A DNA stretch of 64,000 bases from a bacterium BMS3Bbin08 (GCA_002897775.1 BDTR01000025.1:454-64453), one strand, 5' to 3'; numbered from the stretch's first letter, positions 16,913 to 32,566 are shown. Numbers and translations: made by a program. Notes: generated from the sequence alone by a model not told the origin.

Positions 16913-17695
16913 GTGGGGACAAGTCTTTTCAAGAAAATATTTTCGGCGATAAAAAGCGACAAGCTGGAGGACGTAGAGGCCAATATCGACGAACTGCTAA
17001 AAAATGATCCCGGCAATCCAAACCATCATGTTAAAAAGGGAGATATCTGCCAGAGGCTCGGCAAGAATAAAAAAGCGATCGGCGCTTATCACAAGGCCGC
17101 CTACATCTTCAGGGAACAGGGGTTTCTCAAAAAATCGCTTGCCATATACAAGATCATTCTCAGGCTTGATCCCGGCAATGTCATGGCAATGGACAATGCC
17201 GAACAGGCCATCCGTGAGGTCGAGTCCATTGAGGAGGAGTTTGTCCAGCCTGTTTACGTGGAAGAAACTCAAGAGGCGCCGGGTATGGCGCGGAACCCTT
17301 TTTTCAGGCCGTTCAACAGTGACGAGATCGAGCAGATACTTAACAGGGCGGAACTCAGGAACTATTCTGATACCGCGGTTATCATCAGGGAGGACGCTTC
17401 CGGGGATTCCATCTTCGCGGTAAAAGATGGAACAGCGACGGTCGTAACGTCCCTTCTTGGCAGGGATATCGAGCTCGCGACGCTCAGGACCGGGGATATT
17501 TTTGGAGAGGTCGCGTTCCTGACAGGCAGGGCCAGAACCGCTTCGGTCATTGCAAAGGGAGACCTTACGGTACACGAACTCAAAAGACCTCTTCTGGAGG
17601 AGATGCTGGAAAGAAAGCCCGAGATCATGGAATATCTTAATGAAATATATAACCTGAGATCAAAAGGCAGGGAAGACAAGATAAAAAATGTATGA
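16913..17695 (+). CDS. TPR-like plus cyclic-nucleotide-binding (CAP-effector) domain protein
   Basis: 260 aa. The C-terminal half carries FGEVAFLTGRARTASVIA, typical of a cNMP-binding domain. GTG start with ggag upstream. Confidence 0.8.
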   Translation: MGTSLFKKIFSAIKSDKLEDVEANIDELLKNDPGNPNHHVKKGDICQRLGKNKKAIGAYHKAAYIFREQGFLKKSLAIYKIILRLDPGNVMAMDNAEQAIREVESIEEEFVQPVYVEETQEAPGMARNPFFRPFNSDEIEQILNRAELRNYSDTAVIIREDASGDSIFAVKDGTATVVTSLLGRDIELATLRTGDIFGEVAFLTGRARTASVIAKGDLTVHELKRPLLEEMLERKPEIMEYLNEIYNLRSKGREDKIKNV

Positions 17696-17717: not shown

Positions 17718-19691
17718 TTACTTTTCCCTGTGACGCACAATCTTATCTTTTTCAGGCTCTGTTATAGTTGATTCAGAACCATGGTCCAGGGACTTCACCT
17801 CATATATACTTATCGGCTGTTCCTTGCCTTTGACTATGACCCTTTCCAGCCCTTTAACTGACAGGTGCGAAATAGCGCCGGATGTCACAAGATCCTTGAT
17901 CCTGTTCTTGGTAAATTCCGTGATCAGGATGCGGGTATTGTACTTCTTGGTCAGGCCCTCTACCCTTGCTCCAAGATTTACATGGTCCCCGATGACCGTA
18001 TAGTCCATTTTTTTACCTTCAGCGCCTATATTTCCAACTATAACTTCCCCGGAATTTATGCCTATCCCGGCATTAAGGACGGGCTTGCCCTCTGCCTGCC
18101 ATTTCCGCTGGAGATCGTCAAGTTCCTGAGACATATTAAGCGCGCACCTCAAGGCAAGCTCCGCGTGATTATCCTGTCTCATGGGAGCGCCCCAGAAGGC
18201 AAGTATCTCGTCTCCCACAAACTTGTCAAGAGTGCCCTCCCACCTGAAAATAACATCCGTCATCTCCGCGAGGTATTCATTCAGCATATGGACAACCTCC
18301 TCAGGTGAATGTTTTTCCGAAAAAGTCGTAAAACCCCTTATATCGGAAAACAATACGGTTATATCCCTTCTCTCGCCGCCCAGCCTTGCCATGTCAGGGT
18401 TCTTCATCAACTCATTGACGACCCTTTCAGTGACATAGCTGGAAAATATCTTCCTGACATGCCTGGCGCTTTTTTCTTCGATAAAATACCTGTAGCTTAT
18501 TATAAAAGTGCCTTCTGTCATCAGGGTATAGATGGGATATATGTAATTAACCCTGACACCATGGAACGAAAAGAGAAACTGGTTCGCGGCCATCACGGAT
18601 AAAGTTAAGATCACGTACCAGTTAAATGACCTGACCGCGCTTTGCTTAATGCTCATCAGCAGGCCGAGTATGCCGACCACGATCACAACAAGCACATTGA
18701 CGTAATCAGGGGCCGGAGTAATGAAATTTCTCTTAATTATGTTGGAAACGACGGTTGCGTTCTTTTCAACGCCGGGCATGATCGCTGAAAAAGGCGTGAT
18801 CTTTGTGTCAAAGGTAGCTATGGCAGACGTTCCGATAAACACAACTTTATCCCTGAAGGCGCCTTCCGGCAGGCGGCCTGACAGGACATCCGAGGCATGT
18901 ATGGACGTTATGCTCCCCTGCTTGCCGATGTAGTTAACGTCAACCCGGCCGAATTTATCAGTGGGAATGAACAGCCCGTCAAGCTCAACTCCGGCCCCGC
19001 CTATAATTTTTATACTATCAAGGGGAAGTCCTTTGTAAATGCGCGCTGCCTGAAGGGCCAGCGAAGGGAAATACTCGTCCCCGTATTTAATATAAAGGCT
19101 TTCCTTCCTCAGTTTTCCATCCCTGTCAGGCGGTGAAACTACATGCCCGTATGTCGCGGGGCCTGTCAGGGGGCCCTCCTCCGGAAGAAACACTTTATAC
19201 GCTTCATAAGCATTCAGAAAGCTCTGGTTTTCTATCTTCCGAATAGCGTTGTCATAGAGAACGTCCTCGATTTCACCTTCGAATTTTTTACCCTCTTTGA
19301 CTCCAAACGTAAGGGCCACCACAAGCCTGTCTTTATACCTGCTGAACACATCGGCAAGCGCCCTGTCATATTCCGGGTCTTTAGGGTCGGAATAAAAGAT
19401 ATCCAGCGCAACGGCCTTAGGCCCGTACCTGAACACCTTTTCAACAAGCTCTGCCTGAAGTTTCCTGTCCCACTGCCATCCGCCGTATTCTTTGATGCTC
19501 GGCTCATCAATCAGGACTAACTGTACATCAGCAGGTATTGGAGGCGGGGAAATAAGGTTTCTGATCTTAAACCTGTAGTCAACGAACAGCGCTTCCACGT
19601 ATTCGTCAATGACCGAGGGATTTATGATGGTGAGCCAGACAAAGGCAAGGGTTATCAGCAGAGGAACAATTATAATTATTTTTCCGCTCAA
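17718..19691 (-). CDS. CHASE2 sensor-domain class III adenylate/guanylate cyclase
   Basis: 657 aa. N-terminal TM segment, a periplasmic domain of about 300 aa, three TM segments, then a cyclase domain (VLFSDIRGFT..., FVGDEILAFWGAP, GINSGEVIVGNIG). Confidence 0.9.
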   Translation of the reverse strand: MSGKIIIIVPLLITLAFVWLTIINPSVIDEYVEALFVDYRFKIRNLISPPPIPADVQLVLIDEPSIKEYGGWQWDRKLQAELVEKVFRYGPKAVALDIFYSDPKDPEYDRALADVFSRYKDRLVVALTFGVKEGKKFEGEIEDVLYDNAIRKIENQSFLNAYEAYKVFLPEEGPLTGPATYGHVVSPPDRDGKLRKESLYIKYGDEYFPSLALQAARIYKGLPLDSIKIIGGAGVELDGLFIPTDKFGRVDVNYIGKQGSITSIHASDVLSGRLPEGAFRDKVVFIGTSAIATFDTKITPFSAIMPGVEKNATVVSNIIKRNFITPAPDYVNVLVVIVVGILGLLMSIKQSAVRSFNWYVILTLSVMAANQFLFSFHGVRVNYIYPIYTLMTEGTFIISYRYFIEEKSARHVRKIFSSYVTERVVNELMKNPDMARLGGERRDITVLFSDIRGFTTFSEKHSPEEVVHMLNEYLAEMTDVIFRWEGTLDKFVGDEILAFWGAPMRQDNHAELALRCALNMSQELDDLQRKWQAEGKPVLNAGIGINSGEVIVGNIGAEGKKMDYTVIGDHVNLGARVEGLTKKYNTRILITEFTKNRIKDLVTSGAISHLSVKGLERVIVKGKEQPISIYEVKSLDHGSESTITEPEKDKIVRHREK

Positions 19692-19737
19692 ACCGGCGGT
19701 TATTCTCTTACTCAGATCGCTTATGGAAGACCTCCAC

Positions 19738-21189
19738 TCATTTCTTCAGGAGCCTGTCTCTGTAATCTTCCACTATCCTTCCCCTGCTTCCTTCTTCCGT
19801 AGATTCAACAAGCTCGACCCTGCCGTCCTTCCTTGTGCGATAAGAGGAATTCTCGTCTTCCAGCTTTGGATAAAACCTGCCTGCAATGACCTCATACAGG
19901 TCTACTTTAAAAAGAGGCCTGCCAGGACCGGCCGCTCCTTCCCGCGAAAGATCGAGGAGCCCTTCGTTATCATTGACAGTATACAGTCCTCTTTCATTTT
20001 TATAGCCTACATAATACTTGCCCGCATCTTTATGATATACGTCAGCATTAAGGGGATAGAGCCTGTCATCCACCTTTTCAAAAAATTTATTCCCTTTTAT
20101 CCTGAAGTTCTTTTCTGAATTGCACAACACCCATTCAGAGGTTATCTTGTCAGGGCCGTGAGTGAGTATGGTCCTGTTCTGTTTGAGCGTGCTGTTCTTA
20201 AGCCCCCTGTAGTCAGTATGGACCGCGCCGGCGTTAACAGAAATATCATGGATAACAATTGCGCTATCATACGCGTGTATTGCCTGGTCATACCGTTCCT
20301 TACTCCAAACCCGCTCTATATAATCGTTTATATCCCCGTAAATAACAGACGCGGCCTCGAACTCCTTCTTTGACATGCCCGGCGTCTGTTTTCTTTTCTT
20401 TGTATAAAGCCTTTTCCACAGGTCCAGGTCATTGACTGTGTCAGAGCTGAAAACAAGAGTTTCTTTATCAGTACTGAACTTAAACCCGACAGCAGGGACA
20501 CCATGCCATACAGGAGCCTTTATCGCCTCAATGGTAAAACCCTCTTTGTCCCTGTATATGTTCTTGTCTTCTCCATAGAATACATTCGAAGAAAAGGGAT
20601 AATAGTTCTCAGGCTCGATCCACTCTTTGGAATCAGGGTCCCTGAACAACAACCGCGGCCTTCTGGTCTTGTTGCTGATAACTATCTTTGCTTTTTCAGA
20701 TCCCGCAACATTACCGGCTGTGTCGATCACATACAGGCCTGTTTTGCCGTTGCCCTCTTCAACAGAGGTTATACGGTATCTGGCGCGCGGGCCTACTATT
20801 TCGTAATCAATATAATCTTCATACGCAATGTCAATTACTTTCGAGGAATCCCGGGTAAGGCTTCTGTCCAGTGCCGCCGCTGATGTCGCGACAAGGTCAT
20901 CATGGATAGCCTCTGATGTAAGCAGAGAGACCCTGTTCGTAAAATCAGCCGCGTACATGTTAAACAGGGCAAGGTCGGTAAACCACCTCTTGTGGTCATC
21001 GTGACAGTGGGTGACCGTCAGGCCGCTTATCTCTTTCAGTCCATGGCCGCCTATTTGCTGGAAAAGAGGCGCTCCACAGTCAACGAGGTAACTGGACTTC
21101 CCTATGGTCACCCGGTAACCAATACTTTTACCCATCCTTGAGAACGGGCCGGAATCACCCAGCACATATAAAGTTATGCCGTCTTTCAT
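19738..21189 (-). CDS. metallo-beta-lactamase-fold hydrolase with large insertions (possible cyclic-nucleotide phosphodiesterase)
   Basis: 483 aa. The HxHxDH-type motif THCHDDH follows an LVDCG strand. It lies 46 nt upstream of, and co-oriented with, the cyclase gene. The PDE role is inference. Confidence 0.6.
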   Translation of the reverse strand: MKDGITLYVLGDSGPFSRMGKSIGYRVTIGKSSYLVDCGAPLFQQIGGHGLKEISGLTVTHCHDDHKRWFTDLALFNMYAADFTNRVSLLTSEAIHDDLVATSAAALDRSLTRDSSKVIDIAYEDYIDYEIVGPRARYRITSVEEGNGKTGLYVIDTAGNVAGSEKAKIVISNKTRRPRLLFRDPDSKEWIEPENYYPFSSNVFYGEDKNIYRDKEGFTIEAIKAPVWHGVPAVGFKFSTDKETLVFSSDTVNDLDLWKRLYTKKRKQTPGMSKKEFEAASVIYGDINDYIERVWSKERYDQAIHAYDSAIVIHDISVNAGAVHTDYRGLKNSTLKQNRTILTHGPDKITSEWVLCNSEKNFRIKGNKFFEKVDDRLYPLNADVYHKDAGKYYVGYKNERGLYTVNDNEGLLDLSREGAAGPGRPLFKVDLYEVIAGRFYPKLEDENSSYRTRKDGRVELVESTEEGSRGRIVEDYRDRLLKK

Positions 21190-21305
21190 TTAACGGATAT
21201 TTTAGCATTTTTTTTACTCAATGAATAGAAAAAATTACAATAATGCGCCGGTGTTCCGGAAAATCAGGCGACATTACGCAATTAAAATGTGTATCATAAA
21301 CGCTA

Positions 21306-21737
21306 ATGTTAAAAACCGAATCAGATAATAGCCCTATCCTGAAAAATACAGCCATTCATCTAAGCCTGATACTTTTAATTGGCCTTGTAGTCCGGCTGGT
21401 CTATCTGTGGCAGATCTCTGAATACCCCAATTTTTATGTGCCGTATCCGGGAATGGACGTTGCGTTTTACCATGACCGCGCAAAAGAAGTGGCCGGTGGG
21501 AATTTGCTTCTTGGCCATAACGCGTACTATTACGCTCCATTGTACGCGTATTTCCTTGGAGGACTGTACACACTTTTTGGTGATAGTTACTGGGTCGCGC
21601 GGCTTGCCAATGTCATCATTGGTGTCGGCAGCATCGCTCTTATCTATTTCCTGACCCTGAGACTGTTCAGGTCATACGGAACAGCCCAGACAGTGGCGTA
21701 CCCTTTCAAGCATGCTAAGACGGCTGGGCTATATTGA
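21306..21737 (+). pseudogene. N-terminal fragment of a GT39/ArnT-like membrane glycosyltransferase
   Basis: 143 aa of TM helices with a Y..PLYAYFLG pattern like the first ~130 residues of 500+ aa ArnT/PMT-family proteins. The ORF stops early and no continuation is seen. Confidence 0.4.
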
Positions 21738-21808
21738 AGAATCACAAAAAGCAAAGGAGAACGTCAAAAAATATAAACCCGGACGTTCTCCTCAAAAAAC
21801 CCGCTAAT

Positions 21809-23164
21809 CTATTCTTTTGATACTAGCGGCGGCGTTAAACACCCGCCTGAAACCGCTGAATTAAAAGGATCAAAAAGCGGAGCCGGGTTGACACCCCAGT
21901 AACATATATCAATACCGCCCGAACAACTGCCTGATGAGCTAATAGTTGGTCCCGTCGGCTCGGTTGTACTGTCGTGGTCCCACGAGTTATTAATTGCATC
22001 CACCTGAGTAGAACTATCGCTTATCAGGTCCGCGTCCCAGTTGCAGTAGATCTCACTATTCCTTACAGTTACATCGGCTTCATAGACCTCAATACCAAAG
22101 GCATTATTATAAATAGTATTGCCCGTGATATTAGCAACGCCGCCATCAATATATATCCCCCCGGATGCATTATCCGAAATTTCAGTGTCAGTTATAGTTA
22201 CGTTTGAATCATTGGCATAGATAGCTGTCTCACCGCCGCCGTTAATATCACGAATAATTGAATTGCTAACTACAGAGCCGTCACTGCTGATGCCTAAACT
22301 TATGCCTTCACCGGCGCAGCATCCGCCGCCCTCAATTAACACATTATCTATAGTCATTGGACCATTACTGAATATTCCTGTCTCATAATTATCAACGATC
22401 ACTCTGCATCCCTGAATTAATGCACCTGTTGCGCCTTGTATGGCAAGGCTCCAGGCATCAAACGCGTCAATAACCGTGGTAAAGTCCGATCCTGTGCAGA
22501 TCAGAGACATACCGCTTTGTAACAGAAGAGGGAAAGTCTCATTTCCCGGCCCCACCGCAAGCTCTGGTGCGGAAGGAGGCGGTGCGTAAGCATATCCGCC
22601 GGATCCATAATACGTACCGGCTGCTACACATATTACCGCGTTGTCGATCTCCCTGATGCCGGCCTCTTCAATGGCCCTGGTAATTGTCTCAAGCGGCATT
22701 GCTATTGAACCGTCATTTATATCGTCGTCTCCAGTATTGATATCAACGTAAATGTCACACTGGGTCCGCATATAAACAGTCACACTGGTCGGCCCCTGAA
22801 TATCCGCGCAGGTGACCCCTGAGTATAAAAGCCTTCCATCTCCGTCAAGCGCGTCTATCCTGAAACACCTGTCCGGGCCGTTTGGAACAACAAAAACAAC
22901 AGTAATTGTATCCTGGCCCTGCACATCCACTATTTCTTTCATGGGGCTCATATCCGGCCCTGTTACAGTGAACCTGAAAGTTTCTATTGACGCCGGGAAT
23001 AGTTCCGGGCCCTGCGCAGCGCTGCCTCCGGAACGCTCACCTATTGTGACAGATACCTCTGTCCAGCCTTCGTCAGAACTGTCGCTTACACTACTGCTGC
23101 CGCTGCTGCATGAAGCGATCAGCAAACATAACGCCAGTAAGCCTATATATTGCGGGAATTTCAT
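21809..23164 (-). CDS. lipoprotein with a shared N-terminal domain and a C-terminal right-handed parallel beta-helix region
   Basis: Lipobox LLIASC after the start at 23164, which has SD aaggag. The N-terminal ~120 aa are alignable to those of the 28633-30501 protein. PbH1-like repeats are present (NSIIRDINGGG, ITDTEISDNASGGIYIDG, ITGNTIYNNAFGIEV). Confidence 0.7.
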   Translation of the reverse strand: MKFPQYIGLLALCLLIASCSSGSSSVSDSSDEGWTEVSVTIGERSGGSAAQGPELFPASIETFRFTVTGPDMSPMKEIVDVQGQDTITVVFVVPNGPDRCFRIDALDGDGRLLYSGVTCADIQGPTSVTVYMRTQCDIYVDINTGDDDINDGSIAMPLETITRAIEEAGIREIDNAVICVAAGTYYGSGGYAYAPPPSAPELAVGPGNETFPLLLQSGMSLICTGSDFTTVIDAFDAWSLAIQGATGALIQGCRVIVDNYETGIFSNGPMTIDNVLIEGGGCCAGEGISLGISSDGSVVSNSIIRDINGGGETAIYANDSNVTITDTEISDNASGGIYIDGGVANITGNTIYNNAFGIEVYEADVTVRNSEIYCNWDADLISDSSTQVDAINNSWDHDSTTEPTGPTISSSGSCSGGIDICYWGVNPAPLFDPFNSAVSGGCLTPPLVSKE

Positions 23165-23238
23165 AATTCTTCTCCTTGAACTATATATATTCAAAAAAGC
23201 ACTTTATTTCTAAGCAACTCAGCCGGAGAGCATAAAAT

Positions 23239-23267
23239 AGTTTTCCACAATTCAGCTAAATTGTCAA
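23239..23267 (-). promoter_or_regulatory. candidate sigma70 promoter TTGACA-N17-AAAACT
   Basis: On the minus strand the -35 is at 23262-23267 and the -10 at 23239-23244, about 68 nt before the ATG at 23164. The architecture matches the sites at 25500-25528 and 27816-27844. Confidence 0.3.
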
Positions 23268-23334
23268 GAAACGATCCAATTACATATGTACAGCTTCTGC
23301 CTGCAACATACAGCTAATCACGCATAAATCGGCA

Positions 23335-24111
23335 TTAATAACCGAATTCCATTTCTACATTGACCGGCGAAACCGGATCTTCAGGCTCCTGGTCCGACCC
23401 CGGATCGACATCTCCTTCACTCAGCAGCTCTTCCGGCGTCTTCTTATCTTCTTCGCTGTGACCTTTGGGATAGTCTCCTATTACAATAATATCTCCCCAG
23501 TCATCGCCCAACAGCTCAAAGTCAGCGTCTTTGACGTCTTCAGGGTCCATACCCCATTCAACACGGGTCATCTCGCCTGCCTTGACAAGGACGCTTTTCT
23601 TGCCAAGTTTGCCGTCAATGACCGCTGTGACCTTTGACTCACCTTCGGTCACGATAACAATGGTAAACCACTTGCCCCCTATCTTCATATATTTCACATG
23701 GATGACCGTGCCTCGTGCCGCGGCTACAGCAGTGGCAGTGTGTATCTCAAGGTCAGACCTGCCGACCACGACTTTTAACGATCCGTCAATAAGCCTGTAG
23801 ATCGACTTTGACCTTTGTTTCTCTGGACTGTACAGATATTCTTCAACCACAAGTTTGCTCATCTCTCCAAGATTAATAATACTGTCATCAGTGAAAAACA
23901 GTTTTGCCCTTGATTTCTTTCCGGTCTCAACCGAATCCTTGAGCATGAGCTTCATCTGTGGCTCAGCGGCTTTCTTACTTTCACCCTGCACAATATGCAC
24001 CTGTTTCTTAACTGACAGGACATGTCCGACTTCTGTATCAGCCCCGGACCTTGCCGTACTCATAAAGACCATTGAAAGACATATCAACCCTGTTAACAAA
24101 TATTTTTTCAT
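23335..24111 (-). CDS. secreted FecR-domain protein, paralog 1
   Basis: 258 aa with a signal peptide. The block KLFFTDDSIINLGEMSKL...YRLIDGSLKV...IHTATAVAAARGT looks like FecR (PF04773). Acidic C-terminal tail. The start overlaps the upstream stop (ATGA). Confidence 0.7.
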   Translation of the reverse strand: MKKYLLTGLICLSMVFMSTARSGADTEVGHVLSVKKQVHIVQGESKKAAEPQMKLMLKDSVETGKKSRAKLFFTDDSIINLGEMSKLVVEEYLYSPEKQRSKSIYRLIDGSLKVVVGRSDLEIHTATAVAAARGTVIHVKYMKIGGKWFTIVIVTEGESKVTAVIDGKLGKKSVLVKAGEMTRVEWGMDPEDVKDADFELLGDDWGDIIVIGDYPKGHSEEDKKTPEELLSEGDVDPGSDQEPEDPVSPVNVEMEFGY

Positions 24112-25415
24112 AGCACACCTACCTTTAAGAATATTCCAACAATGTTCCTGCTGTAATCATAATTGCTCAGATTGGAGCTATTGTTGGTATAAGTATCTGT
24201 CAAGGCGACACTCAGCCTGTCCGGAATGATATAGTAAGTAAGCTTTGCGCCGTATTTCGTCATCTCGTCTTTCCTCTTGAGTGAAGAACCGAGGAAAACA
24301 GCCTTATGGCTTCTTTTATTATACTCGCCTGAAACACTTATAAACAGCGGAGTTGTTATCTGATAGACAAGCTTCGCGCCGGCCCTGTGCCCGTCATATG
24401 ACCAGTAAGCAGTCTCCGCCCTGTTGAAATCAGCGAAATAAAAAACATGTCCAGCCAGTTTTTTAACTGTAAAGTTCTGCTTTATGCCGTACGTGTTAGT
24501 ATGCCCTCTGCGCAGCCGGTTAGTGCTGAACAAAGGCGCGTCCCAGTACTTGTTGTCCTTATATTCGATTATTGCTTCGGTTGACAGATGCTTTCCCTCT
24601 TTTAATTTCAGTTTGCCCTGATAAATATGCTTCCTGCTGTAAAGCTCATCTCCAAACAGTGTGTATGTCAGAGTATAGCCTGCCGTAGCCTGAAGCGGTT
24701 CCAATATATCAACAACTATGTACGGGTTTATATTGTGATAATGGATATTATAATCATCAAGGTCCGCGTGAAAACTCTGATAAAACTTATAATTTACCTT
24801 AAGCTTTGCCGGCCCTATCTCATATAATGTGGCGGCGGCGGATATGTATACGGTCCCTCTGATGTCATCCGCGTCACCAGCGCCCGCAACCGGAGGGTTG
24901 TCAGGTTCAAGTATTACATTGCTGTCATACTGTCCGCCGAGTGTAATATCAAGTTTGTAGCGTTTTTCCCCTCTTCTTTCTTTTTTGCAGTCTTTCCGCA
25001 TTTTCTCAGCCTGTTTCTTAAGCGGGCTTTCTGCCGTAAGCGCAATAAACCTTGAAAAGTTGCCCGAAGACTTACTGCATTCAAAGGTCAGGTAATAAAT
25101 ACGGCCAAGTTCAAAATATGCTTCCACAGCGTCTTTATCAAGCTGAAGGACTTTGTGAAATGCTGTTTCAGCCTTTTTATAATTCTTAAGCCCTGTGTAT
25201 GCGACACCTGAGTAAAAGACCGCCTCAATGCTGTTAGGCGATATCTTTATTGCCCTTTTTAGCAGCATAAGCGCTGAGCTGTAATTTTGTTCATTGATCT
25301 TCTGAATACCCCTGGCAACGTACAGTTCGGCATCCTCTGTTCTCGCGTGGACCACCGGCACTGCTGATATAAGAAGAAAAACAAAAGTTATCAGGCATGC
25401 AAAATATCTTTTCAT
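24108..25415 (-). CDS. TPR-repeat plus predicted outer-membrane beta-barrel protein, paralog 1 (Slam/DUF560-like architecture)
   Basis: 435 aa. Signal peptide, about 130 aa of TPR, a charged linker, then about 270 aa with an alternating beta-strand pattern starting KLDITLGGQYDSNV. SD aggaggtggg. Assignment to DUF560 is unverified. Confidence 0.55.
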   Translation of the reverse strand: MKRYFACLITFVFLLISAVPVVHARTEDAELYVARGIQKINEQNYSSALMLLKRAIKISPNSIEAVFYSGVAYTGLKNYKKAETAFHKVLQLDKDAVEAYFELGRIYYLTFECSKSSGNFSRFIALTAESPLKKQAEKMRKDCKKERRGEKRYKLDITLGGQYDSNVILEPDNPPVAGAGDADDIRGTVYISAAATLYEIGPAKLKVNYKFYQSFHADLDDYNIHYHNINPYIVVDILEPLQATAGYTLTYTLFGDELYSRKHIYQGKLKLKEGKHLSTEAIIEYKDNKYWDAPLFSTNRLRRGHTNTYGIKQNFTVKKLAGHVFYFADFNRAETAYWSYDGHRAGAKLVYQITTPLFISVSGEYNKRSHKAVFLGSSLKRKDEMTKYGAKLTYYIIPDRLSVALTDTYTNNSSNLSNYDYSRNIVGIFLKVGVL

Positions 25416-25499
25416 TTTAATAATCCCACCTCCTGATCTATAGCTTTTTTGTTATATATTAAAATATTAATATGTTTGCGTGAAGGCTAAATCTTGCTT

Positions 25500-25528
25500 A
25501 TTTTTCCATAAGTTACAGGGTTTGTCAA
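25500..25528 (-). promoter_or_regulatory. candidate sigma70 promoter TTGACA-N17-AAAAAT
   Basis: On the minus strand the -35 is at 25523-25528 and the -10 at 25500-25505, within the 221-nt gap between the two duplicated modules. Confidence 0.35.
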
Positions 25529-25636
25529 GGTTAAATTAACCTATAAATAATGTTAATTTAACTCCTTTGATTTTCAGATTTATCCCTGTTAAATATGTAT
25601 TCCAAATATCTTATAAATTATCTACTACTACAACTA

Positions 25637-26440
25637 CTACTGGAAATCCAGATCAATTGTCACCGGAATTGTCTCAGTAGTCGCCGGCTCCTGTTCTTCT
25701 ATCGGAGGTAAATCACCCTCCTCAACAGGATCTCCTTCAAGGGGATCGCCTTCGCCTTCTTCAATAAGTGTTTCATCCAGCGGCGGCAATGGCTCGCCTG
25801 AATCATACACCTGGTCGCCTATTACAATGGTAGCCTCCTCAAACTGCTCTATCACGGCAGGGTCAAACGGGACCTTCTCAAGACCCCCCCCCTCTGTGGT
25901 CTGGCCCATTTCTCCGGCGCCAAGCGGAAGCGGCTCTCCTATGCCTGTGAGGTCAGTAAGTATGGCGTCTCCTTCTGTGACTATCATCCATGTAAACAGG
26001 TTGCCGTCAGCATCACGGTCAACACCGATATAAATAACAGTTCCCCTTGCAGCCGCGACCGCGGTCGGTGTGTGTATCTCAAGGTCTGACCTGCCTACAA
26101 CGACCTTTAAAGAACCGTCCAGCAGTCTGTAAATTGACTTGGACCTCTTCTTCTCCGGACTGTATAAGTATTCTTCAACCTCTACCCTGCTCTTCTCGCC
26201 AAGGCTCAGGATACTGTCATCACTGAAAAACAGTTTTGTCCTTGATCTCTTGCCTGTCTCCACCGCATCCTTGAGCATAAGCTTCATCTTAGGCTTCGCG
26301 TCCTTTTTCATGTTGTCGCGCACGACATATACGTCTTTCTTCACTGACAGGACCTGTCCGGCCTCTGTCCCGGCATAGGACGCTGTAGCCGCGAATACCA
26401 TTAAAAGACAAACAAAACCTGTCAATCCATATTTTCTCAT
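25637..26440 (-). CDS. secreted FecR-domain protein, paralog 2
   Basis: 267 aa. The N-terminal ~140 aa are highly similar to the 23335-24111 product. The C-terminal half has diverged and is acidic and proline-rich. ATGA overlap with the upstream gene. Confidence 0.7.
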   Translation of the reverse strand: MRKYGLTGFVCLLMVFAATASYAGTEAGQVLSVKKDVYVVRDNMKKDAKPKMKLMLKDAVETGKRSRTKLFFSDDSILSLGEKSRVEVEEYLYSPEKKRSKSIYRLLDGSLKVVVGRSDLEIHTPTAVAAARGTVIYIGVDRDADGNLFTWMIVTEGDAILTDLTGIGEPLPLGAGEMGQTTEGGGLEKVPFDPAVIEQFEEATIVIGDQVYDSGEPLPPLDETLIEEGEGDPLEGDPVEEGDLPPIEEQEPATTETIPVTIDLDFQ

Positions 26441-27753
26441 AGCACACCTGCTTTCAGGAATATTCCCGCAACATTCCTTTCATAATCATAGTCCAATAAA
26501 TTGGAATCATTAATTGTGTATGTATCCGCTATTATAACGCTCAGAACTTTTGAGACCTTGTAGGTAAACCCTATGTAGTACTTCTGCATCTTGTCCAACC
26601 TCTTAGCAGTAAAACCGGCGAAAATGTCCTTGTGTTGCCGCCTGTTGTATTCACCGGAAACTTTCACCTGCAGAGATGGTATTATCTTGTAACATACTTT
26701 GCCGCCTGCCCTGTAACCGTCAAATGACCAGTACCTCACTTCAGCTCTCTTAAAGTCTGCATAACCATATATGCCGGCGCAAAACTTTTTAATATAAAGT
26801 TTCTGCTTCAGGCCAAATGTGTTCTGATGCCCACTGCGCAGGGAATTCGTGGTAAACAGGTCATCATCCCAGTACTTGATATCCTTATACTCATAAATTC
26901 CTTCTGTGACAAGATGTTTGCCCTCTTTGACCTGAGCTTTTCCCTGGTAAGTATGAACTCTGCTGTAAAGGTCGTTGCCAAGAAGCGTATAATCCAGCGT
27001 GTAACCGGCGGTTGCAGTTACCGGGCCCATAACATCCACTACAACAGCAGGATTGAATCTATAATACTGCAGATTATATTCCTCCAGGTTGCCGTGCACG
27101 CTGTTATAAGTAAGGGCATTAGCCTTCAGCTTCACTGGTCCTGTTTTGAATATAGTACCCCTGGCCGCGATAATTGCCACGCCCCGCCCGTCTTCTTTCC
27201 TGTCTCTTCTTTCTAAACCAGAAGGCGGGTTTGACGGCTCAAGTATTACATTGCTGTCATGCTGACCGCCTACAGTAATATTAAGCTTGAAGCTTTTTTT
27301 CTCTTTTTTAGCTTCTTTTCTACAGCTATTCTTCAGTCTTATTGCGTACTGCTTTGCTGATTCATTATCCGTACGGGATATAAACCTTGAAAGATAAGAT
27401 GAGGACTTGTCACACCTGCCTGTGGAATAATAAACACTGCCAAGTTCAAGAAAGGCGTTCATAGATGTTTTGTCCAGGCTGATCGTCCTTAAAAGTAATT
27501 TTTCAGCCTTTTTATATTCACCAAGCCTTGAGTGCGCGATCCCTGTATAATATGTTGCTTCAGGGTCATTAGGCGACATGCTCAAGGCCTTTTCTAACAC
27601 TTTTAAGGCTTCGCCATAGCGTTCTTCGTTTATCTTCTGAATGCCCTGCGCAATATACAACTCGTAGTCATTGGCACTCAGGTCAGGCGGGGATATTACA
27701 GAAAAGGAAAAAATAACCAACAGACATGCTAGAATACCTCTCAGAATAGTCAT
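26437..27753 (-). CDS. TPR-repeat plus predicted outer-membrane beta-barrel protein, paralog 2
   Basis: Collinear with the 24108-25415 product (KLNITVGGQHDSNVILEPSNPP, C-terminus GIFLKAGVL). I prefer the ATG at 27753, preceded by gtggaggtgg, to the ORF-track start at 27825. Confidence 0.55.
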   Translation of the reverse strand: MTILRGILACLLVIFSFSVISPPDLSANDYELYIAQGIQKINEERYGEALKVLEKALSMSPNDPEATYYTGIAHSRLGEYKKAEKLLLRTISLDKTSMNAFLELGSVYYSTGRCDKSSSYLSRFISRTDNESAKQYAIRLKNSCRKEAKKEKKSFKLNITVGGQHDSNVILEPSNPPSGLERRDRKEDGRGVAIIAARGTIFKTGPVKLKANALTYNSVHGNLEEYNLQYYRFNPAVVVDVMGPVTATAGYTLDYTLLGNDLYSRVHTYQGKAQVKEGKHLVTEGIYEYKDIKYWDDDLFTTNSLRSGHQNTFGLKQKLYIKKFCAGIYGYADFKRAEVRYWSFDGYRAGGKVCYKIIPSLQVKVSGEYNRRQHKDIFAGFTAKRLDKMQKYYIGFTYKVSKVLSVIIADTYTINDSNLLDYDYERNVAGIFLKAGVL

Positions 27754-27815
27754 TCCACCTCCACTTATCATTATTAAGGTAAGATTATTTACAATAAATC
27801 GGCGTTGATTGCATA

Positions 27816-27844
27816 ATTTTTTCATAATAGCCCGATTTTGTCAA
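27816..27844 (-). promoter_or_regulatory. candidate sigma70 promoter TTGACA-N17-AAAAAT
   Basis: On the minus strand the -35 is at 27839-27844 and the -10 at 27816-27821, about 60 nt before the ATG at 27753. Confidence 0.35.
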
Positions 27845-27855
27845 GGCAAAATTCA

Positions 27856-28563
27856 CTATTTTATCCCTGAAAATCCAAAATCCATCTCCATTGTTTTACC
27901 CACTGTTGTTCCTTCCGGTTTTTCAGCAGTATATGTTCCGGGAATTCTGAGGATCTTTGCCTCATTGTCCCAGACCGCCGTACGGGTCTTTATGAGCTTT
28001 CCAGTAAAAAAATCCTCCACACTGACTCCTTTCATATTGATCTTTTTTCTCTTGAAGTCAATACGGGCTTTATCTGCCTTGAGCAGTAAGAAAGGCTCAT
28101 CAGCTTTATATATCCTGATCTCAAGGCCGTCTATAAGCCCGCGTGTGATAAGACCCAATCCTTGGGTACCGGTCCTGCCCTGTTCATCAAGGGTCAGGAT
28201 GCTTCGCGCTGTGGAAAGCAGGTCCACTTTTGAAGACATATCATCATTTGAAGGCATATCATCATAAAGATAGAACTCCAGCCTGGCATTTGTAAGGACG
28301 GCTTCATTAAAAGGCCGCACATTGAATACCCAGAATTTTCTCTTTTTTACCTTGAGCTCATCAGCTTCAATTCTGGCTATAAGCCTGCCCTTATCATGGG
28401 TGCTGTAGGAAAGGCCTTTAATTTTAAGGGGATGAACAGATGTTTTCTGTTTTTTTACCTGAGGCTGTAGCTCATGGTCCCGGCCTGTGCGCCAGAGGAT
28501 AAGCATAACGCAAACGCCAAAGACCAGTATTAAAAAAACCGTTATAAAACGGGAACGGGGCAT
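27856..28563 (-). CDS. N-terminally membrane-anchored periplasmic protein (possible LptC/OstA-like beta-jellyroll)
   Basis: 235 aa. Single TM segment (FITVFLILVFGVCVMLILW) followed by a beta-rich body. The LptC-like impression comes only from size, topology and strand pattern. Confidence 0.4.
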   Translation of the reverse strand: MPRSRFITVFLILVFGVCVMLILWRTGRDHELQPQVKKQKTSVHPLKIKGLSYSTHDKGRLIARIEADELKVKKRKFWVFNVRPFNEAVLTNARLEFYLYDDMPSNDDMSSKVDLLSTARSILTLDEQGRTGTQGLGLITRGLIDGLEIRIYKADEPFLLLKADKARIDFKRKKINMKGVSVEDFFTGKLIKTRTAVWDNEAKILRIPGTYTAEKPEGTTVGKTMEMDFGFSGIK

Positions 28564-28583
28564 AAATTTTATACCTTAGAGGA

Positions 28584-28617
28584 TAAAAACGGGTAGGGCT
28601 TTACAAAGCCCTACCCG
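28584..28617 (-). terminator. Rho-independent terminator after the 28633-30501 gene
   Basis: Perfect 10-bp stem cgggtagggc / gccctacccg (28590-99 / 28608-17) with an 8-nt loop. It is followed on the minus strand by TTTTTA. Confidence 0.7.
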
Positions 28618-28632
28618 CAAACTTATTCTTAA

Positions 28633-30501
28633 CTATGGTAATGGCATGCCATCAACTTCAATGCCGGTTGTTGCGCCGGGAGCCGTCATCAGGATATATT
28701 CGTCCTCATATATCCAGGCACCAAAATCGTCATCAGCTGAAAGACGCCCGCTCCAATTGATGCCAGAGTCCCAGACCTGCAGTGAACAGCAAAATGCACC
28801 TGCACCACCCTGAAAATAGATAGAATCTATCAGATAGTCTGTGCCGTGAAGATCAAACCACAGGCTCCTTACCAGATAATAATTATAAGCGCCCGGGAAA
28901 CTAATTGTACCGTCGTATGTATGAGCCGCCCCAAGCAGAATAAATCCGAATGCTTCCGGGTCATGGCCGATATTCTCTTTGTTGGGGCTGGTATCTCCTG
29001 TGACATCGATGCCGCCGTAAACATAGTAAATGCCTTCCTCAAAAATGTCTGCCGTGCCGTTACCGTCACGGTCATTATTCAATTCTGACGGGTCCCATCC
29101 ATCCAGTTGCACAAAAACACCGTCCATATATGGGTCCGGCAGAAAACCGGTTGGATCATCACCCGCAATGGTCGGAAGTAACGCCCTCAGGTTTATACCC
29201 GGACTGAAGAAATTACTAAAATCGAGAATAGTATCATCAGATGTGTCGCCGACTGTCTCATTGTCATCAACAGTGCACTGGCCAAAAAGACACTGTTTTG
29301 CCGTGGTTAAGTCATCCCGATCCTCCTGTATCTCCTGGGCATCTGCATCACCAAGGTTGATAAAATCATTATCCTGATTGTCTGATTCTGCGTCCATCCA
29401 GGCAATGGCTGCATCAAGGTCATTAGCTCCATCATCCAAATAATTCCTTGCCGTATTCAGATTTCCGGTGTTTGTCAAGGTCCCGAAATTCGGGTTATCA
29501 TTAAGAAAGTCCTGCTTTGTCCTGGATTCCTCGTTGTTAGCTTCAAAGTCTATATCTGCATCAAGATCATACGCGTCCTGCATTAAAAGAAGCGCCAGCC
29601 CACCTTTAGCTAAAGCACTGAAAACGAGAATGTCTCCGAAATCGCTCTCTACTGACGTGCCGTCCCACGGCTCGGTCCAGACATAATTGAAAGACTGAGA
29701 GACAGACTGAATCGTTGTTATTATATCTTCAAGTGCCGGACGACCCACATTAAAGAGAAAATTCTGAAGCTCCAGACCGGTGGGTGAGTTACCCGGCATA
29801 GTATCAGGACAGCTGGGGTCGTCATGAACACTGCCCGCATGAGTGCAATTAAACGCGTCAAGGATATCACTGGCAGTGTTCAACCCGTTATTGGGATCTC
29901 CGTCAGATACTGTATCAAAAAAGAATGTCAGCACATGAAAAAACCTTGCTGTGTCAGCTTCATTTGAGACTTCAGTTCCGTATCTGTCCGAGGCATCCCT
30001 GCAAAAGTCATTTGCGGCAGATAAATTATCACTGCTGACGGCGCTCTCACAAAGCGCGAGCAATGCACCCGGTGAGAGACCTTCCATGCTAAGTATTATT
30101 GAAACAGATACAGGCTCGCCTCCTGCCCCCACTTCAAGGTCTGCATAGGCGTCACCGTAATAGTACAAAGTGCCGTTGGCAGTATAGGCAAACACTTCAA
30201 AATGCCTGTTAGGCCCTATCGGGACATCGAATGTCTCGGAAACACTGGTCCCGGTCACTAATACAGTACGCTCTATCGGGTCCATATCCGATCCCGTGAT
30301 ATAAAACCTGACAGATGCCACCCCGGCCGGCGCCTGTTCCGGAGCAGCTATTGAGGAACCGTCCCGACCGCCGACGTTAACTATAACAGTCGCGGTTCCT
30401 GAACCGGTCCTGCTGAGGTCATCACTGTTTCCCAATCCACCGCTGCAGGATAAGATCATAAGGGATAAAACCATTAAACCTATGAACTGAAGGTATCTCA
30501 T
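28633..30501 (-). CDS. lipoprotein with a shared N-terminal domain and a large acidic, Asp/Asn-rich C-terminal region
   Basis: 622 aa. Lipobox LMILSC, SD aaggag. The N-terminal ~120 aa align with the 21809-23164 product (FxxTGxDMxP...VPxGPxR...G.L.Y.G). Contains NNDRDGNGTAD and DxD-rich stretches that suggest Ca-binding loops. Confidence 0.65.
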   Translation of the reverse strand: MRYLQFIGLMVLSLMILSCSGGLGNSDDLSRTGSGTATVIVNVGGRDGSSIAAPEQAPAGVASVRFYITGSDMDPIERTVLVTGTSVSETFDVPIGPNRHFEVFAYTANGTLYYYGDAYADLEVGAGGEPVSVSIILSMEGLSPGALLALCESAVSSDNLSAANDFCRDASDRYGTEVSNEADTARFFHVLTFFFDTVSDGDPNNGLNTASDILDAFNCTHAGSVHDDPSCPDTMPGNSPTGLELQNFLFNVGRPALEDIITTIQSVSQSFNYVWTEPWDGTSVESDFGDILVFSALAKGGLALLLMQDAYDLDADIDFEANNEESRTKQDFLNDNPNFGTLTNTGNLNTARNYLDDGANDLDAAIAWMDAESDNQDNDFINLGDADAQEIQEDRDDLTTAKQCLFGQCTVDDNETVGDTSDDTILDFSNFFSPGINLRALLPTIAGDDPTGFLPDPYMDGVFVQLDGWDPSELNNDRDGNGTADIFEEGIYYVYGGIDVTGDTSPNKENIGHDPEAFGFILLGAAHTYDGTISFPGAYNYYLVRSLWFDLHGTDYLIDSIYFQGGAGAFCCSLQVWDSGINWSGRLSADDDFGAWIYEDEYILMTAPGATTGIEVDGMPLP

Positions 30502-30749
30502 AAAATTACTCCTTGAAAAGATTTCTTACACTGCGAGCATACCCTTCTGAAAGAAAGAGCTCTTGTGTCTATATGAGTGAACTATAGCATAAACCAATAT
30601 TAAGAGGAAACGTGAAAAAATAACCAGAATATATGGATTAAAATTAGTTATTTTTTGCAATAATCAATTTTTTCGCATACTGTAAAAGCTTGTTAAGATA
30701 AAATTCACATTCTCAATGCTTCACCAGAAAAGGCAAAACTGAAGGAAAA

Positions 30750-31178
30750 TCAGGGCATAATGCCCGTTACCTCAAAGAATCTTTTAGGTGTAACAATATC
30801 AATTCCTTTGTATGACTCAAGACCTAACAGGTGGGAATCGCCGGACACAATATAGTCTGCCCTGCCCTCTACAGCAGTTGATAAGACCTTATTGTCATCA
30901 GGGTCTTCCTTTATAACATCAATCAACGGCAGGTCTCCTGTTAAAACAGAATATCTCAAAAGGTTCAGGATGGTTTGTCTTATCAGATCCTCATTCAGAC
31001 GGTATTTCTTTTTTATCTTTGGATAGTTCAGGACTTTTTCAGCTTCCATAACCATTGATTGCGATGTTACAAGAACAATGGCTTCTTCTTCCCAAAGTCT
31101 GACAACCTTATATGGGGACCCCCTTTTCTGTATGATGCCGCTTATGAGGATATTGGTGTCTATTACGACCCTAAGCAC
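30750..31178 (-). CDS. PIN-domain toxin (VapC-like)
   Basis: 142 aa. VVIDTNILISG N-terminal acidic motif and C-terminal IVSGDSHLL. Overlaps the upstream antitoxin gene by 8 nt. Confidence 0.8.
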   Translation of the reverse strand: MLRVVIDTNILISGIIQKRGSPYKVVRLWEEEAIVLVTSQSMVMEAEKVLNYPKIKKKYRLNEDLIRQTILNLLRYSVLTGDLPLIDVIKEDPDDNKVLSTAVEGRADYIVSGDSHLLGLESYKGIDIVTPKRFFEVTGIMP

Positions 31179-31443
31179 CTTTTCTTGCCGCCTTTACGGC
31201 CTCCCGGACATCTGCCCTGACCTCTCTCGCAGTATAACCCTTTGATTTAGCCCTGATCTCACCAAATATTTTCATGTCTGCTGTTCTTTGTCTTTTATAG
31301 TTCTCGAACTCATCATAGGGTATTAAAACTGCCATGGTCTTTTTACCTCTTTTGATAATGTACTCCCTGCCCTGGTAATAGACCTCCTCAAGTATCTCGC
31401 CAAGATTTCCCCTGACTTTTAACGCGGACAATTCTTTTGCCAT
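31171..31443 (-). CDS. Phd/YefM-type antitoxin
   Basis: About 90 aa. LSALKVRGNLGEILEEVYYQGREYIIKRGKKTMAVLIPYDEF is Phd/YefM-like. The ATG at 31443 lies 8 nt after aggagg. Confidence 0.75.
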   Translation of the reverse strand: MAKELSALKVRGNLGEILEEVYYQGREYIIKRGKKTMAVLIPYDEFENYKRQRTADMKIFGEIRAKSKGYTAREVRADVREAVKAARKGA

Positions 31444-31456
31444 GATCAACACCTCC

Positions 31457-31683: not shown

Positions 31684-32163
31684 TCATAAATTCCTCCTCG
31701 AAGTCGAGTCGTGCCGACCTGCTATAACTTTAGCAAATTTCACCAGCAAAGCAAAATGAACTTTTATGTCAAGGGTCCGGAGGAATATGTTCTTATATCG
31801 TTCATTGCCTGTAAACATGTCCCACAGGATAGAGCTCAGTGTCTTGGGGGCCTCTGCATCCTGCTGTTCGTCATTAACAACAGCGAGCATGCCTTTGGTC
31901 ATCATACTGCTGGTCTTGATCAGGTCTGTAACCGCGAACAGGTACTTTCCAAACCTGTTGTCAACTATCAGCTCCCTGTAGGCCGGGTAGTAATCCTCCT
32001 GGAAATGCTCTTTGCCTACACCGTGGAAAACCGCTGTTTTCGCGGCTGCCTTTCCCATTGTGTATGCCGCGCCCAGGCCGTCTTTAAAAAGCCTGGTCGA
32101 TCCTGAATCCCCGCACATGATCACCCTGTTGGTAAACGCTGTTTTCGGCGCTCCGACGTTCAT
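31684..32163 (-). pseudogene. C-terminal fragment of an FAD-dependent (geranylgeranyl-reductase-like) oxidoreductase
   Basis: 159 aa beginning near the conserved ...CGDSGS.R.FKDG... region. The N-terminal Rossmann/GxGxxG part is absent. A REP-like palindrome sits exactly at the truncation point. Confidence 0.45.
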
Positions 32164-32166
32164 CTT

Positions 32167-32228
32167 GGGCAGGCAGGTGTTGCTGCGGTTTACCCCGTCA
32201 GAGATTCGTCTCTATACGGGGTAAAGCC
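32167..32228. repeat. REP-like element copy (GGGCAGGCAGG plus GGTTTACCCCGT / ACGGGGTAAAGCC palindrome)
   Basis: Read directly. Shares GGCAGGCAGG and CGGTTTACCC with 11749-11793, and ACGGGGTAAA with 7111-7127. Confidence 0.55.
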
Positions 32229-32272
32229 GTAGACTTTCGAAAAAAGGGTCACGCCCCTTCAGTCCCGCATGC

Positions 32273-32566
32273 TCAGGTAGGCGTAAAAGGCGCGTGAAGA
32301 CCGCCTGCGCCCTTGGTCAAAGGCCCTGTCCATTCATTTACCCCGCCCCTTATGCTCCTGGCCCTGAACCCCTGATTATTAAGAAGAAAAGCGGCTGAGG
32401 CGCTCCTGGCCCCGCCCAGGCAATATACAAAATACTCCTTGTCCTGCCGCAGTTCGCCATATCTCTGCCTCAATTCATCAAGCGGTATATTTACAGCTCC
32501 GGGGATATGCTCTTCTTCAAATTCTATGTCCAGCTGAATGCTGATTTTTAATTGCCTGATAGGCAT
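32273..32566 (-). CDS. rhodanese-like single-domain sulfurtransferase (possibly N-terminally shortened)
   Basis: 97 aa. EEHIPGAVNIPL and the active-site loop YCLGGARS. Confidence 0.7.
   Translation of the reverse strand: MPIRQLKISIQLDIEFEEEHIPGAVNIPLDELRQRYGELRQDKEYFVYCLGGARSASAAFLLNNQGFRARSIRGGVNEWTGPLTKGAGGLHAPFTPT

Follow-up and report, generated by a model that had tools for sequence, protein, structure and literature searches.

A duplicated TPR-barrel, FecR and lipoprotein module beside a CHASE2 cyclase in bacterium BMS3Bbin08: a putative split counterpart of NsrA

Within a 64,000-nt stretch of the genome of bacterium BMS3Bbin08 (GCA_002897775.1, BDTR01000025.1:454-64453; hereafter the window), we have analyzed a group of seven co-oriented genes located at 21809-30501 on the minus strand. 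The group holds twice, as paralogous copies, a module composed of a barrel protein with tetratricopeptide repeats (TPR; protein B), a secreted FecR-domain protein (F) and a lipoprotein (L), and a CHASE2 class III cyclase is encoded downstream. The reading that we favor, with moderate confidence, is that these are two paralogous copies of a split outer-membrane sensory module of the NsrA type, which feed the downstream CHASE2 adenylate cyclase. It is based on the conserved order B-F-L-MBL-CHASE2 in related genomes (MBL, metallo-beta-lactamase fold), the tracking of CHASE2 with F, the existence of a Slam-type clade with a comparable cluster, the homology to NsrA of Sinorhizobium meliloti together with the genetics of that protein, the gene cluster reported by Mo et al. 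(PMC9239204), a motif in the tail of F, and a promoter-like motif shared by the regions preceding L2, B2, B1 and L1. What was established here, by computation, comprises the domains and folds of the proteins, their homologies and synteny, the co-occurrence of F and CHASE2 and the NsrA architecture.

In the mechanism that we propose, B would lie in the outer membrane, its 14-stranded barrel belonging to the Slam/BBP2 superfamily and its TPR arm being placed in the periplasm. F would be a soluble periplasmic protein, translationally coupled to B, carrying a flexible acidic linker and a conserved C-terminal amphipathic strand, and L would be an outer-membrane lipoprotein docked to the module through its conserved N-domain, while its swappable C-domain (a beta-helix in L1, Asp-rich in L2, and fn3, Ig or cadherin-like elsewhere) would give the ligand specificity. 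An envelope or extracellular cue would bind L, the barrel loops or both, altering the B-F complex; F would then pass this change to the periplasmic CHASE2 domain and the cyclase would produce cyclic AMP (cAMP). Proteins binding cyclic nucleotides (cNMP) would respond, and the cytoplasmic MBL phosphodiesterase would reset the signal. The location of L and the ligand are elements that we infer. The genes concerned are the following.

28633-30501, minus strand: L2, lipoprotein with lipobox ILSC, an L N-domain of ~115 aa and an Asp-rich C-terminal region
26437-27753, minus strand: B2, signal peptide, ~3 TPRs and a predicted 14-strand outer-membrane barrel; paralog of B1
25637-26440, minus strand: F2, signal peptidase I signal, FecR domain with a beta extension, acidic disordered linker and ...IPVTIDLDFQ as terminal motif; start overlapping the stop of B2 (ATGA)
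24108-25415, minus strand: B1, signal peptide, ~3 TPRs (residues ~30-147) and a predicted 14-strand barrel (153-433)
23335-24111, minus strand: F1, secreted protein with a FecR domain, an acidic linker and ...SPVNVEMEFGY as terminal motif; overlaps B1 by ATGA
21809-23164, minus strand: L1, lipoprotein with lipobox IASC, an L N-domain (predicted beta-sandwich, residues ~34-122) and a right-handed beta-helix
19738-21189, minus strand: MBL-fold protein, cytoplasmic, 483 aa, whose HCHDDH motif is intact; candidate phosphodiesterase for cyclic nucleotides
17718-19691, minus strand: CHASE2 sensor with a class III cyclase (CHASE2 E 3e-51, Guanylate_cyc E 3e-23)
16913-17695, plus strand: TPR and cNMP-binding protein (cNMP_binding E 4e-17), convergent with the cyclase; candidate cAMP effector

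All seven open reading frames (ORFs) of the group, the seventh being an anchored protein treated below, are present where an initial annotation of the window had placed them, with the ATGA overlap at each of the two B/F junctions (B2/F2 and B1/F1). The positions of the ribosome-binding sites favor short starts for B2 (27753) and L1 (23164), and a promoter-like site lying within the longer B2 frame (27818-27845) also backs the short B2 start. L1 and the CHASE2 cyclase are 2.1 kb apart on the same strand, separated only by the MBL-fold gene and a gene remnant.

Barrel, FecR and lipoprotein components

The two barrel proteins are collinear paralogs, as first proposed, with 50.6% identity over 439 aa, covering their full length (E 1e-156). 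TPR matches from Pfam fall at residues ~40-120, and the AlphaFold2 model of B1, obtained from an alignment of 38 sequences, has a pLDDT (predicted local distance difference test) of 90.4 and presents a signal helix, ~3 TPR pairs up to residue 147 and 14 beta-strands at residues 153-433. As far as the prediction goes, the C-terminal regions of B are outer-membrane barrels, in agreement with what had been supposed. Comparison of this model with the PDB by Foldseek returned outer-membrane barrels exclusively, the best one being BcsC, which also combines TPRs and a barrel. Among structures of matching size the best were OmpG (TM-score 0.62-0.64) and CymA, which are 14-stranded barrels, and AlgE was also found among the matches.

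Regarding the family of these barrels, the Pfam scan of B1 and B2 gave no match to PF04575 (SlipAM) at the gathering threshold. BBP2_2 (PF10082) was matched below threshold by the barrel of 35 of the 38 family members (19.0 and 15.8 bits for B1 and B2, with a cut-off of 23.7), and a weak match to TPR_Slam (PF24575) was found in 14 of the 38. A distant phmmer match to B, P0039, is a bona fide SlipAM protein (49.2 bits over the full profile, cut-off 22), and the alignment of the B-family profile with it by hhalign reached 99.6% probability (E 9e-24), including both the TPRs and the barrel; besides, the B-family member P0196 is narrowly above the SlipAM threshold (22.8 bits). Considering the 14-strand model, the P0039 alignment and the score of P0196, the B family has a Slam-like architecture and consists of remote homologs of the Slam/type XI secretion system (T11SS) barrels, at the superfamily level only and not as threshold members of the PF04575 profile hidden Markov model (HMM). 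The likeness to Slam suggested initially holds as real remote homology.

P0196 (778 aa) has an N-terminal ankyrin-repeat region ahead of its TPR-barrel, an unusual fusion of periplasmic ankyrin repeats with a Slam-like barrel. Its extension is not a FecR domain, and no true F-B fusion was found in the B family. An exhaustive search with the B profile also collected proteins containing only TPRs, which inflate its counts and make them unusable as a family size.

In F1 and F2, the FecR domain (PF04773) was recognized with E values of about 1e-10 to 1e-11. Both proteins have only a cleavable signal peptide and this domain, being devoid of a transmembrane (TM) anchor or a cytoplasmic anti-sigma domain, and no solved sequence relative of F1 was found. 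They share 52% identity overall (E 2e-75), distributed as 69% in residues 1-145 and 31% beyond; the description of a conserved N-terminal part with divergent tails is then correct, and that of the first ~140 aa as nearly identical is overstated. In the F family, a low-complexity acidic or Pro-rich disordered linker leads into a terminal amphipathic strand that is conserved, ...QEP...TPVT[IV]x[VL]xF[PQ]. It was observed in 25 of the 34 distinct tails, compared with 5.8% of the control ORFs, and has no match in Pfam or NCBIfam. The tails correspond to residues ~205-258 of F1 (23335-23500) and ~205-267 of F2 (25637-25830), and the paralog-specific endings (EFGY in F1, LDFQ in F2) are each conserved in the closest related locus (L010). 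We suggest that this strand may be a docking element for B. The terminal strand of F is similar to a tail that binds TPRs or to the beta-signal of outer-membrane proteins.

L1 and L2 are related over the first ~140 aa only (37% identity, E 2.5e-21), which agrees with the common N-domain and unlike C-terminal regions noticed initially. The N-domain has ~115 aa with the motif VPxGxxRxF...G...DLxG, appears once per protein and is placed right behind the Cys of the lipoprotein signal and the Gly/Ser linker next to it; the proteins that carry it vary from 360 to 1,527 aa. No relatives of it were found in Pfam, NCBIfam or the PDB sequences, nor did a word-indexed homolog search using the L2 N-domain alone retrieve anything; according to the profile that we built from syntenic loci, NsrA and the Slam-type clade lack this domain. 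The AlphaFold2 model of L1, made from a shallow alignment of 5 sequences (pLDDT 70 overall), contains an N-domain folded as a beta-sandwich of 6-7 strands (pLDDT 70-84) and a confident beta-helix. L1 matches Beta_helix, DUF1565 and NosD in Pfam, and Foldseek with the whole model retrieved beta-helix proteins, namely alginate epimerase/lyase, tailspikes, pectate lyases and RbmB. The Pfam scan of L2 gave no family match; its C-terminal region contains 13.6% Asp and one DxDxDG-like loop. The L2-like protein of L010 has the N-domain alone in common with L2, and the C-terminal regions differ even among close relatives, being replaced elsewhere by arrays of fn3, Ig-like/cadherin-like or InlB repeats.

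Related loci, cyclic-nucleotide genes and promoter-like motif

A scan with the B profile, in which each GTDB species was represented by a single genome, resulted in 48 loci, which were searched with the window proteins. They are mostly from Nitrospirota, with others from Desulfuromonadales, Thermodesulfobacteriota, Tectomicrobia/Entotheonella and Myxococcales. The recurring order is TPR-barrel, FecR, a large variable L-type protein, an MBL-fold (Apyc1-like) protein and the CHASE2 cyclase, often with cNMP-binding genes nearby. The barrel/FecR pair and the lipoproteins are conserved together: F is directly downstream of B in 33 of the 48 loci and a protein with the L N-domain adjoins B in about 32. 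In L010, with 76% identity in B1, the genes are L2-like, B2, F2, B1, F1, L1, MBL and CHASE2 cyclase, the same duplicated layout as in the window and lacking the anchored protein. Independent duplications of B-F-L were found in L026 and L033, and sets of B, F and cyclase without L in L036, L037 and L050.

Restricting the comparison to loci with at least 6 kb downstream of B and using profile HMMs, CHASE2 was detected in 11 of 18 loci with F and in none of 6 without it (Fisher p = 0.016, uncorrected for phylogeny). The link with the CHASE2 cyclase, treated as speculative in the initial annotation, turned out to be the strongest contextual signal, given the conserved order and the tracking with F. 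In the Slam-type clade around P0039, a PDEase_II-type MBL gene and a Slam-type barrel gene are followed by FecR fused to giant Ig-repeat proteins, and a CHASE2 cyclase ends the cluster where the contig is long enough (L060). The phosphodiesterase assignment is firm in this clade, whose MBL gene holds the same position as that of the window. Based on the pattern of presence and absence across loci, and since this distant clade retains the parts, B appears to be the hub, F is probably coupled to CHASE2 and L is a separable partner, in an association that would be old.

Some arrangements deserve a separate record. In L060 (1943-6592) and L063 (9864-17603), FecR is fused to Ig/PKD-repeat proteins of 1,550 to >2,580 aa, as if the roles of F and L were merged. 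In five loci from Manganitrophaceae and further Nitrospirota (L039, L040, L043, L045 and L047), B comes after one or two L-type lipoproteins of very large size (up to 1,527 aa) and both FecR and CHASE2 genes are missing within 10 kb; these may be a free-standing system of barrel and lipoprotein. No divergent CHASE2 was found in the loci without cyclase, where the neighbors are RelA/SpoT, secretin, ABC exporters and GH3. Genes for ABC exporters (ABC_membrane and ABC_tran) are found just downstream of such modules in L042 (12192-15961) and L045 (17459-19246), an adjacency in two unrelated loci that could be due to chance.

The cyclase has a TM segment, a periplasmic CHASE2 domain, further TM segments and the cyclase domain. 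Its substrate residues are the Lys in DKFVGDE and the Thr in YTVIGD, a pair that, going by class IIIb cyclases, we take to specify ATP, which suggests an adenylate cyclase with cAMP as product. The nearest solved relatives of the MBL-fold protein are Apyc1 structures (7u2r and 7t28), a weak similarity (E about 1e-3) covering the N-terminal part only, while orthologs in related loci carry precomputed Apyc1 matches. In L001, L010 and L016, the module is flanked by cNMP-binding genes.

A promoter-like motif was found ahead of the module genes at four positions:

30669-30697, minus strand: CTTAACAA-N12-TGCGAAAAA, upstream of L2
27818-27845, minus strand: CTTGACAA-N13-TGAAAAA, upstream of B2
25502-25529, minus strand: CTTGACAA-N13-TGGAAAA, upstream of B1
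23241-23268, minus strand: CTTGACAA-N13-TGGAAAA, upstream of L1

Its form is that of an extended -10 element with an A-rich hexamer. The general pattern CTTGACAA-N12-13-TGnRAAAA, which was defined post hoc from these four sites, occurs exactly 4 times in the 64 kb, before L2, B2, B1 and L1. The 775 kb of related loci contain 5 matches, 4 of them directly upstream of B or L genes, and conservation in this position was observed in L001, L002 and L010, the last having an orthologous copy of the B1 site at 9887.

Competing explanations and adjoining features

Several points weigh against the sensory module proposed here. The contacts B-F, F-CHASE2 and B-L are ones that we infer, and the candidate phosphodiesterase role of the MBL-fold protein is suggested by weak similarity and by position. 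When the B-family profile was aligned with NsrA by hhalign, the TPR region alone was aligned (82%) and the barrel was left out. The test for the co-occurrence of F and CHASE2 carries no phylogenetic correction, and the cyclase is missing within 10 kb in about one third of the informative B-F loci (L017, L026, L032, L034, L035, L042 and L048). Finally, B-L pairs exist with neither F nor cyclase (L038-L040, L043, L045 and L047), so that the B/L part may have a function of its own.

A broader proposal, which we hold only tentatively, is that a barrel of the Slam/T11SS superfamily works as a trans-envelope receptor hub, holding or displaying the hypervariable L on the cell surface and signaling its ligand state to CHASE2 through a tethered periplasmic F. 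If true, this would be a general mechanism for the input of protein partners to CHASE2 and would bring signaling, besides secretion, into the T11SS barrel family, also carrying that family beyond Proteobacteria. The sensory module and a T11SS-like display are combinable, given that B may display L and also signal via F.

In a different explanation, which we judge unlikely, B is a type XI (Slam-like) secretion or display protein that translocates the neighboring L, and possibly F, to the surface, the cyclase being simply a co-regulated neighbor. B indeed has the T11SS architecture, with a TPR arm of ~125 aa and a 14-strand barrel (PMC8406197); the P0039 (PF04575) alignment and the P0196 score cited above point in the same direction, the lipoprotein genes always adjoin B, B-L pairs persist without F or cyclase, and the C-domains of L are of extracellular types (fn3, Ig-like, beta-helix). 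In addition, a FecR lipoprotein of Leptospira, Lsa33, has been described as possibly exposed on the surface (PMC3444417) and cluster 3 of T11SS is thought to use unknown targeting domains (PMC12282271). However, the known cargo is defined by a C-terminal 8-stranded barrel (TbpBBD/lipoprotein C), for which no Pfam match was found in F1, F2, L1 or L2; in its place, the L1 model has a beta-sandwich and a beta-helix, and the end of F consists of a disordered linker plus a single strand. Nor do B1 and B2 themselves match PF04575. Secretion alone also leaves unexplained the tracking of F with CHASE2, the conserved phosphodiesterase and cNMP-binding genes and the signaling role of NsrA, and with F outside the cell there would be no connection from the outer membrane to CHASE2. 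The initial idea of FecR as exported cargo is poorly supported, considering the missing 8-stranded barrel and the FecR-CHASE2 pairs that occur without any barrel (PMC5192318). B-mediated export or display of the L lipoproteins is possible.

It is much less probable that the genes serve the export or modification of exopolysaccharide, with B as a BcsC/PgaA/EpsL-like porin, L1 as a polysaccharide epimerase or lyase in the periplasm or on the surface, and cAMP regulating the matrix. The Foldseek results (BcsC on top and AlgE among the matches for B1; for the L1 beta-helix, a likeness to alginate epimerase/lyase, to pectate lyases and to RbmB) and the weak matches to BBP2_2, EpsL and PEP-CTERM outer-membrane proteins speak for it. 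Against it, 14 strands are modeled in B while PgaA-like barrels are described with 16 (PMC8406197), synthase-dependent exporters of the BcsC, PgaA and AlgK-AlgE kinds join TPRs to barrels of 16-18 strands beside a polysaccharide synthase, the NCBIfam matches are far under their cut-offs (12-16 bits for BcsC, with a cut-off of 858), the C-domains of L vary widely and are mostly non-enzymatic repeats, and no polysaccharide synthase, glycosyltransferase or Wza/Wzz-type gene is conserved across the 48 loci. We have rejected it on strand number and gene content.

Fec-type cell-surface signaling, in which a FecR anti-sigma factor would work with an extracytoplasmic function (ECF) sigma factor and a TonB-dependent transducer, is suggested by the FecR domain of F1 and F2 and was rejected as extremely improbable, being contradicted by the domain content of F (a cleavable signal peptide, with no TM anchor or cytoplasmic anti-sigma domain) and by the lack of ECF sigma or TonB-dependent receptor genes in the cluster and the syntenic loci.

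Two other features are found between L2 and B2:

28589-28618, minus strand: intrinsic-terminator-like hairpin between L2 and the anchored protein, with a 13-bp stem including 8 GC pairs and a T-run
27856-28563, minus strand: anchored periplasmic protein with a sub-threshold LptC-like N-terminal region; adjacent to the module and not a conserved member

The hairpin corresponds to the terminator already perceived after L2. The anchored protein has a single N-terminal hydrophobic/TM segment, in agreement with the membrane anchoring described initially, and its place in a conserved module was not sustained. It scores below the cut-offs of the LptC models (TIGR04409, 29.2 bits against 38; PF06835, 15.5 bits against 21), in a match confined to residues ~9-72, and a homolog was found in only 1 of the 48 related loci, for which it was rejected as a core member. 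That homolog, with 23% identity (E 5e-11), directly follows a B-F-L-L module in L035 (6734-7651), and its recurrence may be by chance or indicate an optional accessory.

Other remains surround the module. On the plus strand, at 21306-21737, a 143-aa ORF is the N-terminal remnant of a 601-aa membrane glycosyltransferase of the PMT_2 type (56% identity, E 1e-51). In L010, the PMT_2 gene is intact at the equivalent site, flanked by L1 and the MBL gene, and another PMT_2 paralog adjoins it; compared with that locus, ~3 kb have been lost from the window at this point. Directly upstream of L2 there is a pair formed by a PIN (VapC-like) toxin and a Phd/YefM antitoxin (30750-31452, minus strand), which may be an insertion. 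Upstream of the module, L001 and L010 have cNMP-binding genes, and none was noted in the window from L2 to ~36 kb. At 31684-32566 (minus strand), a 97-aa ORF with a Rhodanese domain only adjoins a 159-aa ORF without family match, while L001 has near its module a 366-aa gene combining cNMP_binding and Rhodanese; by analogy, the two window ORFs may be pieces of a decayed effector gene. No RNA families were found by the Rfam search of 15-33 kb.

Relation to known systems

The initial interpretation was, on the whole, partly supported. It had taken the combination of FecR with a TPR-barrel as undescribed, when NsrA (PMC7529298, PMC13001267) and the cluster of Mo et al. (PMC9239204) precede it. The clustering of FecR, TPR, phosphodiesterase and CHASE2 genes, described in one paragraph (PMC9239204), and the NsrA genetics are thus already known. 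New here are the division of the architecture between separate proteins, the assignment of the barrel to the Slam superfamily, the L family with its N-domain, the F tail motif, the shared promoter motif, the modular pattern of presence and absence, the duplication and the occurrence in Nitrospirota. What CHASE2 recognizes is not known, according to the Pfam text quoted in PMC5192318, and nothing settling it was found in the literature searched. Likewise, the portions covered of the CHASE2-mentioning literature since 2019 yielded no description of this mechanism, and those of the T11SS literature no mention of Slam/T11SS-type barrels linked to cyclic-nucleotide signaling, a link that this locus provides. 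The only functional handle on CHASE2 input so far is NsrA in one rhizobium. With its ~50 relatives, the locus indicates that the NsrA logic would be widespread, modular and separable into the barrel as a hub, FecR as a relay linked to CHASE2 and a lipoprotein whose binding domains can be exchanged. It raises hypotheses on three interactions, in which F would meet CHASE2 and B would meet both the tail of F and the N-domain of L.

The T11SS outer-membrane proteins, with a periplasmic TPR domain of ~140 aa and a 14-stranded DUF560 barrel, are distributed throughout Proteobacteria (PMC8406197). B resembles them (PF04575; NilB, Slam1/2 and HrpB) in the TPR arm, the 14-strand barrel, the remote homology and the lipoprotein neighbors. 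On the other hand, B1 and B2 are below the PF04575 threshold and score better, still sub-threshold, on BBP2_2, and their neighbors lack the C-terminal 8-strand cargo barrel. The T11SS context is TonB or metal uptake, whereas that of the window is cyclic-nucleotide signaling in a lineage outside Proteobacteria.

In Burkholderia, a LysM-FecR gene of the 'BiofilmReg' kind (PA4035/PA4036 type) adjoins a CHASE2 histidine kinase (PMC5192318). As in the window, the gene of a CHASE2 sensor has beside it that of a secreted protein with a FecR domain, but that operon has no barrel, TPR protein or lipoprotein, its FecR protein carries LysM and its output is a two-component kinase. MtxA is also a secreted protein, with its gene upstream of a CHASE2 cyclase (PMC4439547). 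Considering these barrel-less FecR-CHASE2 pairs and MtxA, the role of periplasmic partner suits F.

Closer in gene content is the cluster of Campylobacterota, where, in the passages of Mo et al. (2022, mBio) available to us, all adenylate cyclases have CHASE2 and most of their genes are grouped with those of a phosphodiesterase for cAMP, a protein with a FecR domain and one with TPRs (PMC9239204). The same four kinds of genes, with the phosphodiesterase as a candidate, are found at 17718-27753 in the window. The account consists of one paragraph of comparative genomics, which names the TPR protein without mention of a barrel and, as far as those passages go, describes no lipoprotein partner, duplication or mechanism.

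The closest system is that of S. meliloti, in which experiments have shown NsrA to be needed for signal perception by the CHASE2 cyclases CyaK, CyaD1 and CyaD2, the NsrA-dependent cue being an external protein signal (PMC7529298, PMC13001267). We derived the NsrA architecture from the pSymB DNA, scanning for domains the ORF that abuts the gene of the cyaK-type CHASE2 cyclase. This ORF of 1,219 aa, at the nsrA position directly upstream of cyaK, has FecR at residues 85-179 and TPRs at 397-606. The F-family HMM matches its residues 20-270 (E 1.5e-11); for the C-terminal region, Pfam gave no matches, and residues 600-1200 have been described as a barrel (PMC7529298). Both systems thus have FecR, TPRs and an outer-membrane barrel, a CHASE2 class III cyclase encoded immediately downstream, and an expected cAMP output with cNMP-binding effectors. 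They differ in that NsrA is one chain, while F and B are separate and translationally coupled in the window. The C-terminal region of NsrA (~600 aa) has no detectable homology to the 14-strand barrel of B, the L-type lipoprotein domain is missing from NsrA and represented by L1 and L2 in the window, and the window has in addition a duplicated module, an MBL phosphodiesterase candidate in the operon and a Nitrospirota-like host. Since NsrA joins FecR, TPRs and barrel in a single chain upstream of cyaK, the window seems to contain the split version: rather than a proven ortholog, it would be a three-protein counterpart of NsrA, recognized by its architecture, its genomic context and its FecR module.

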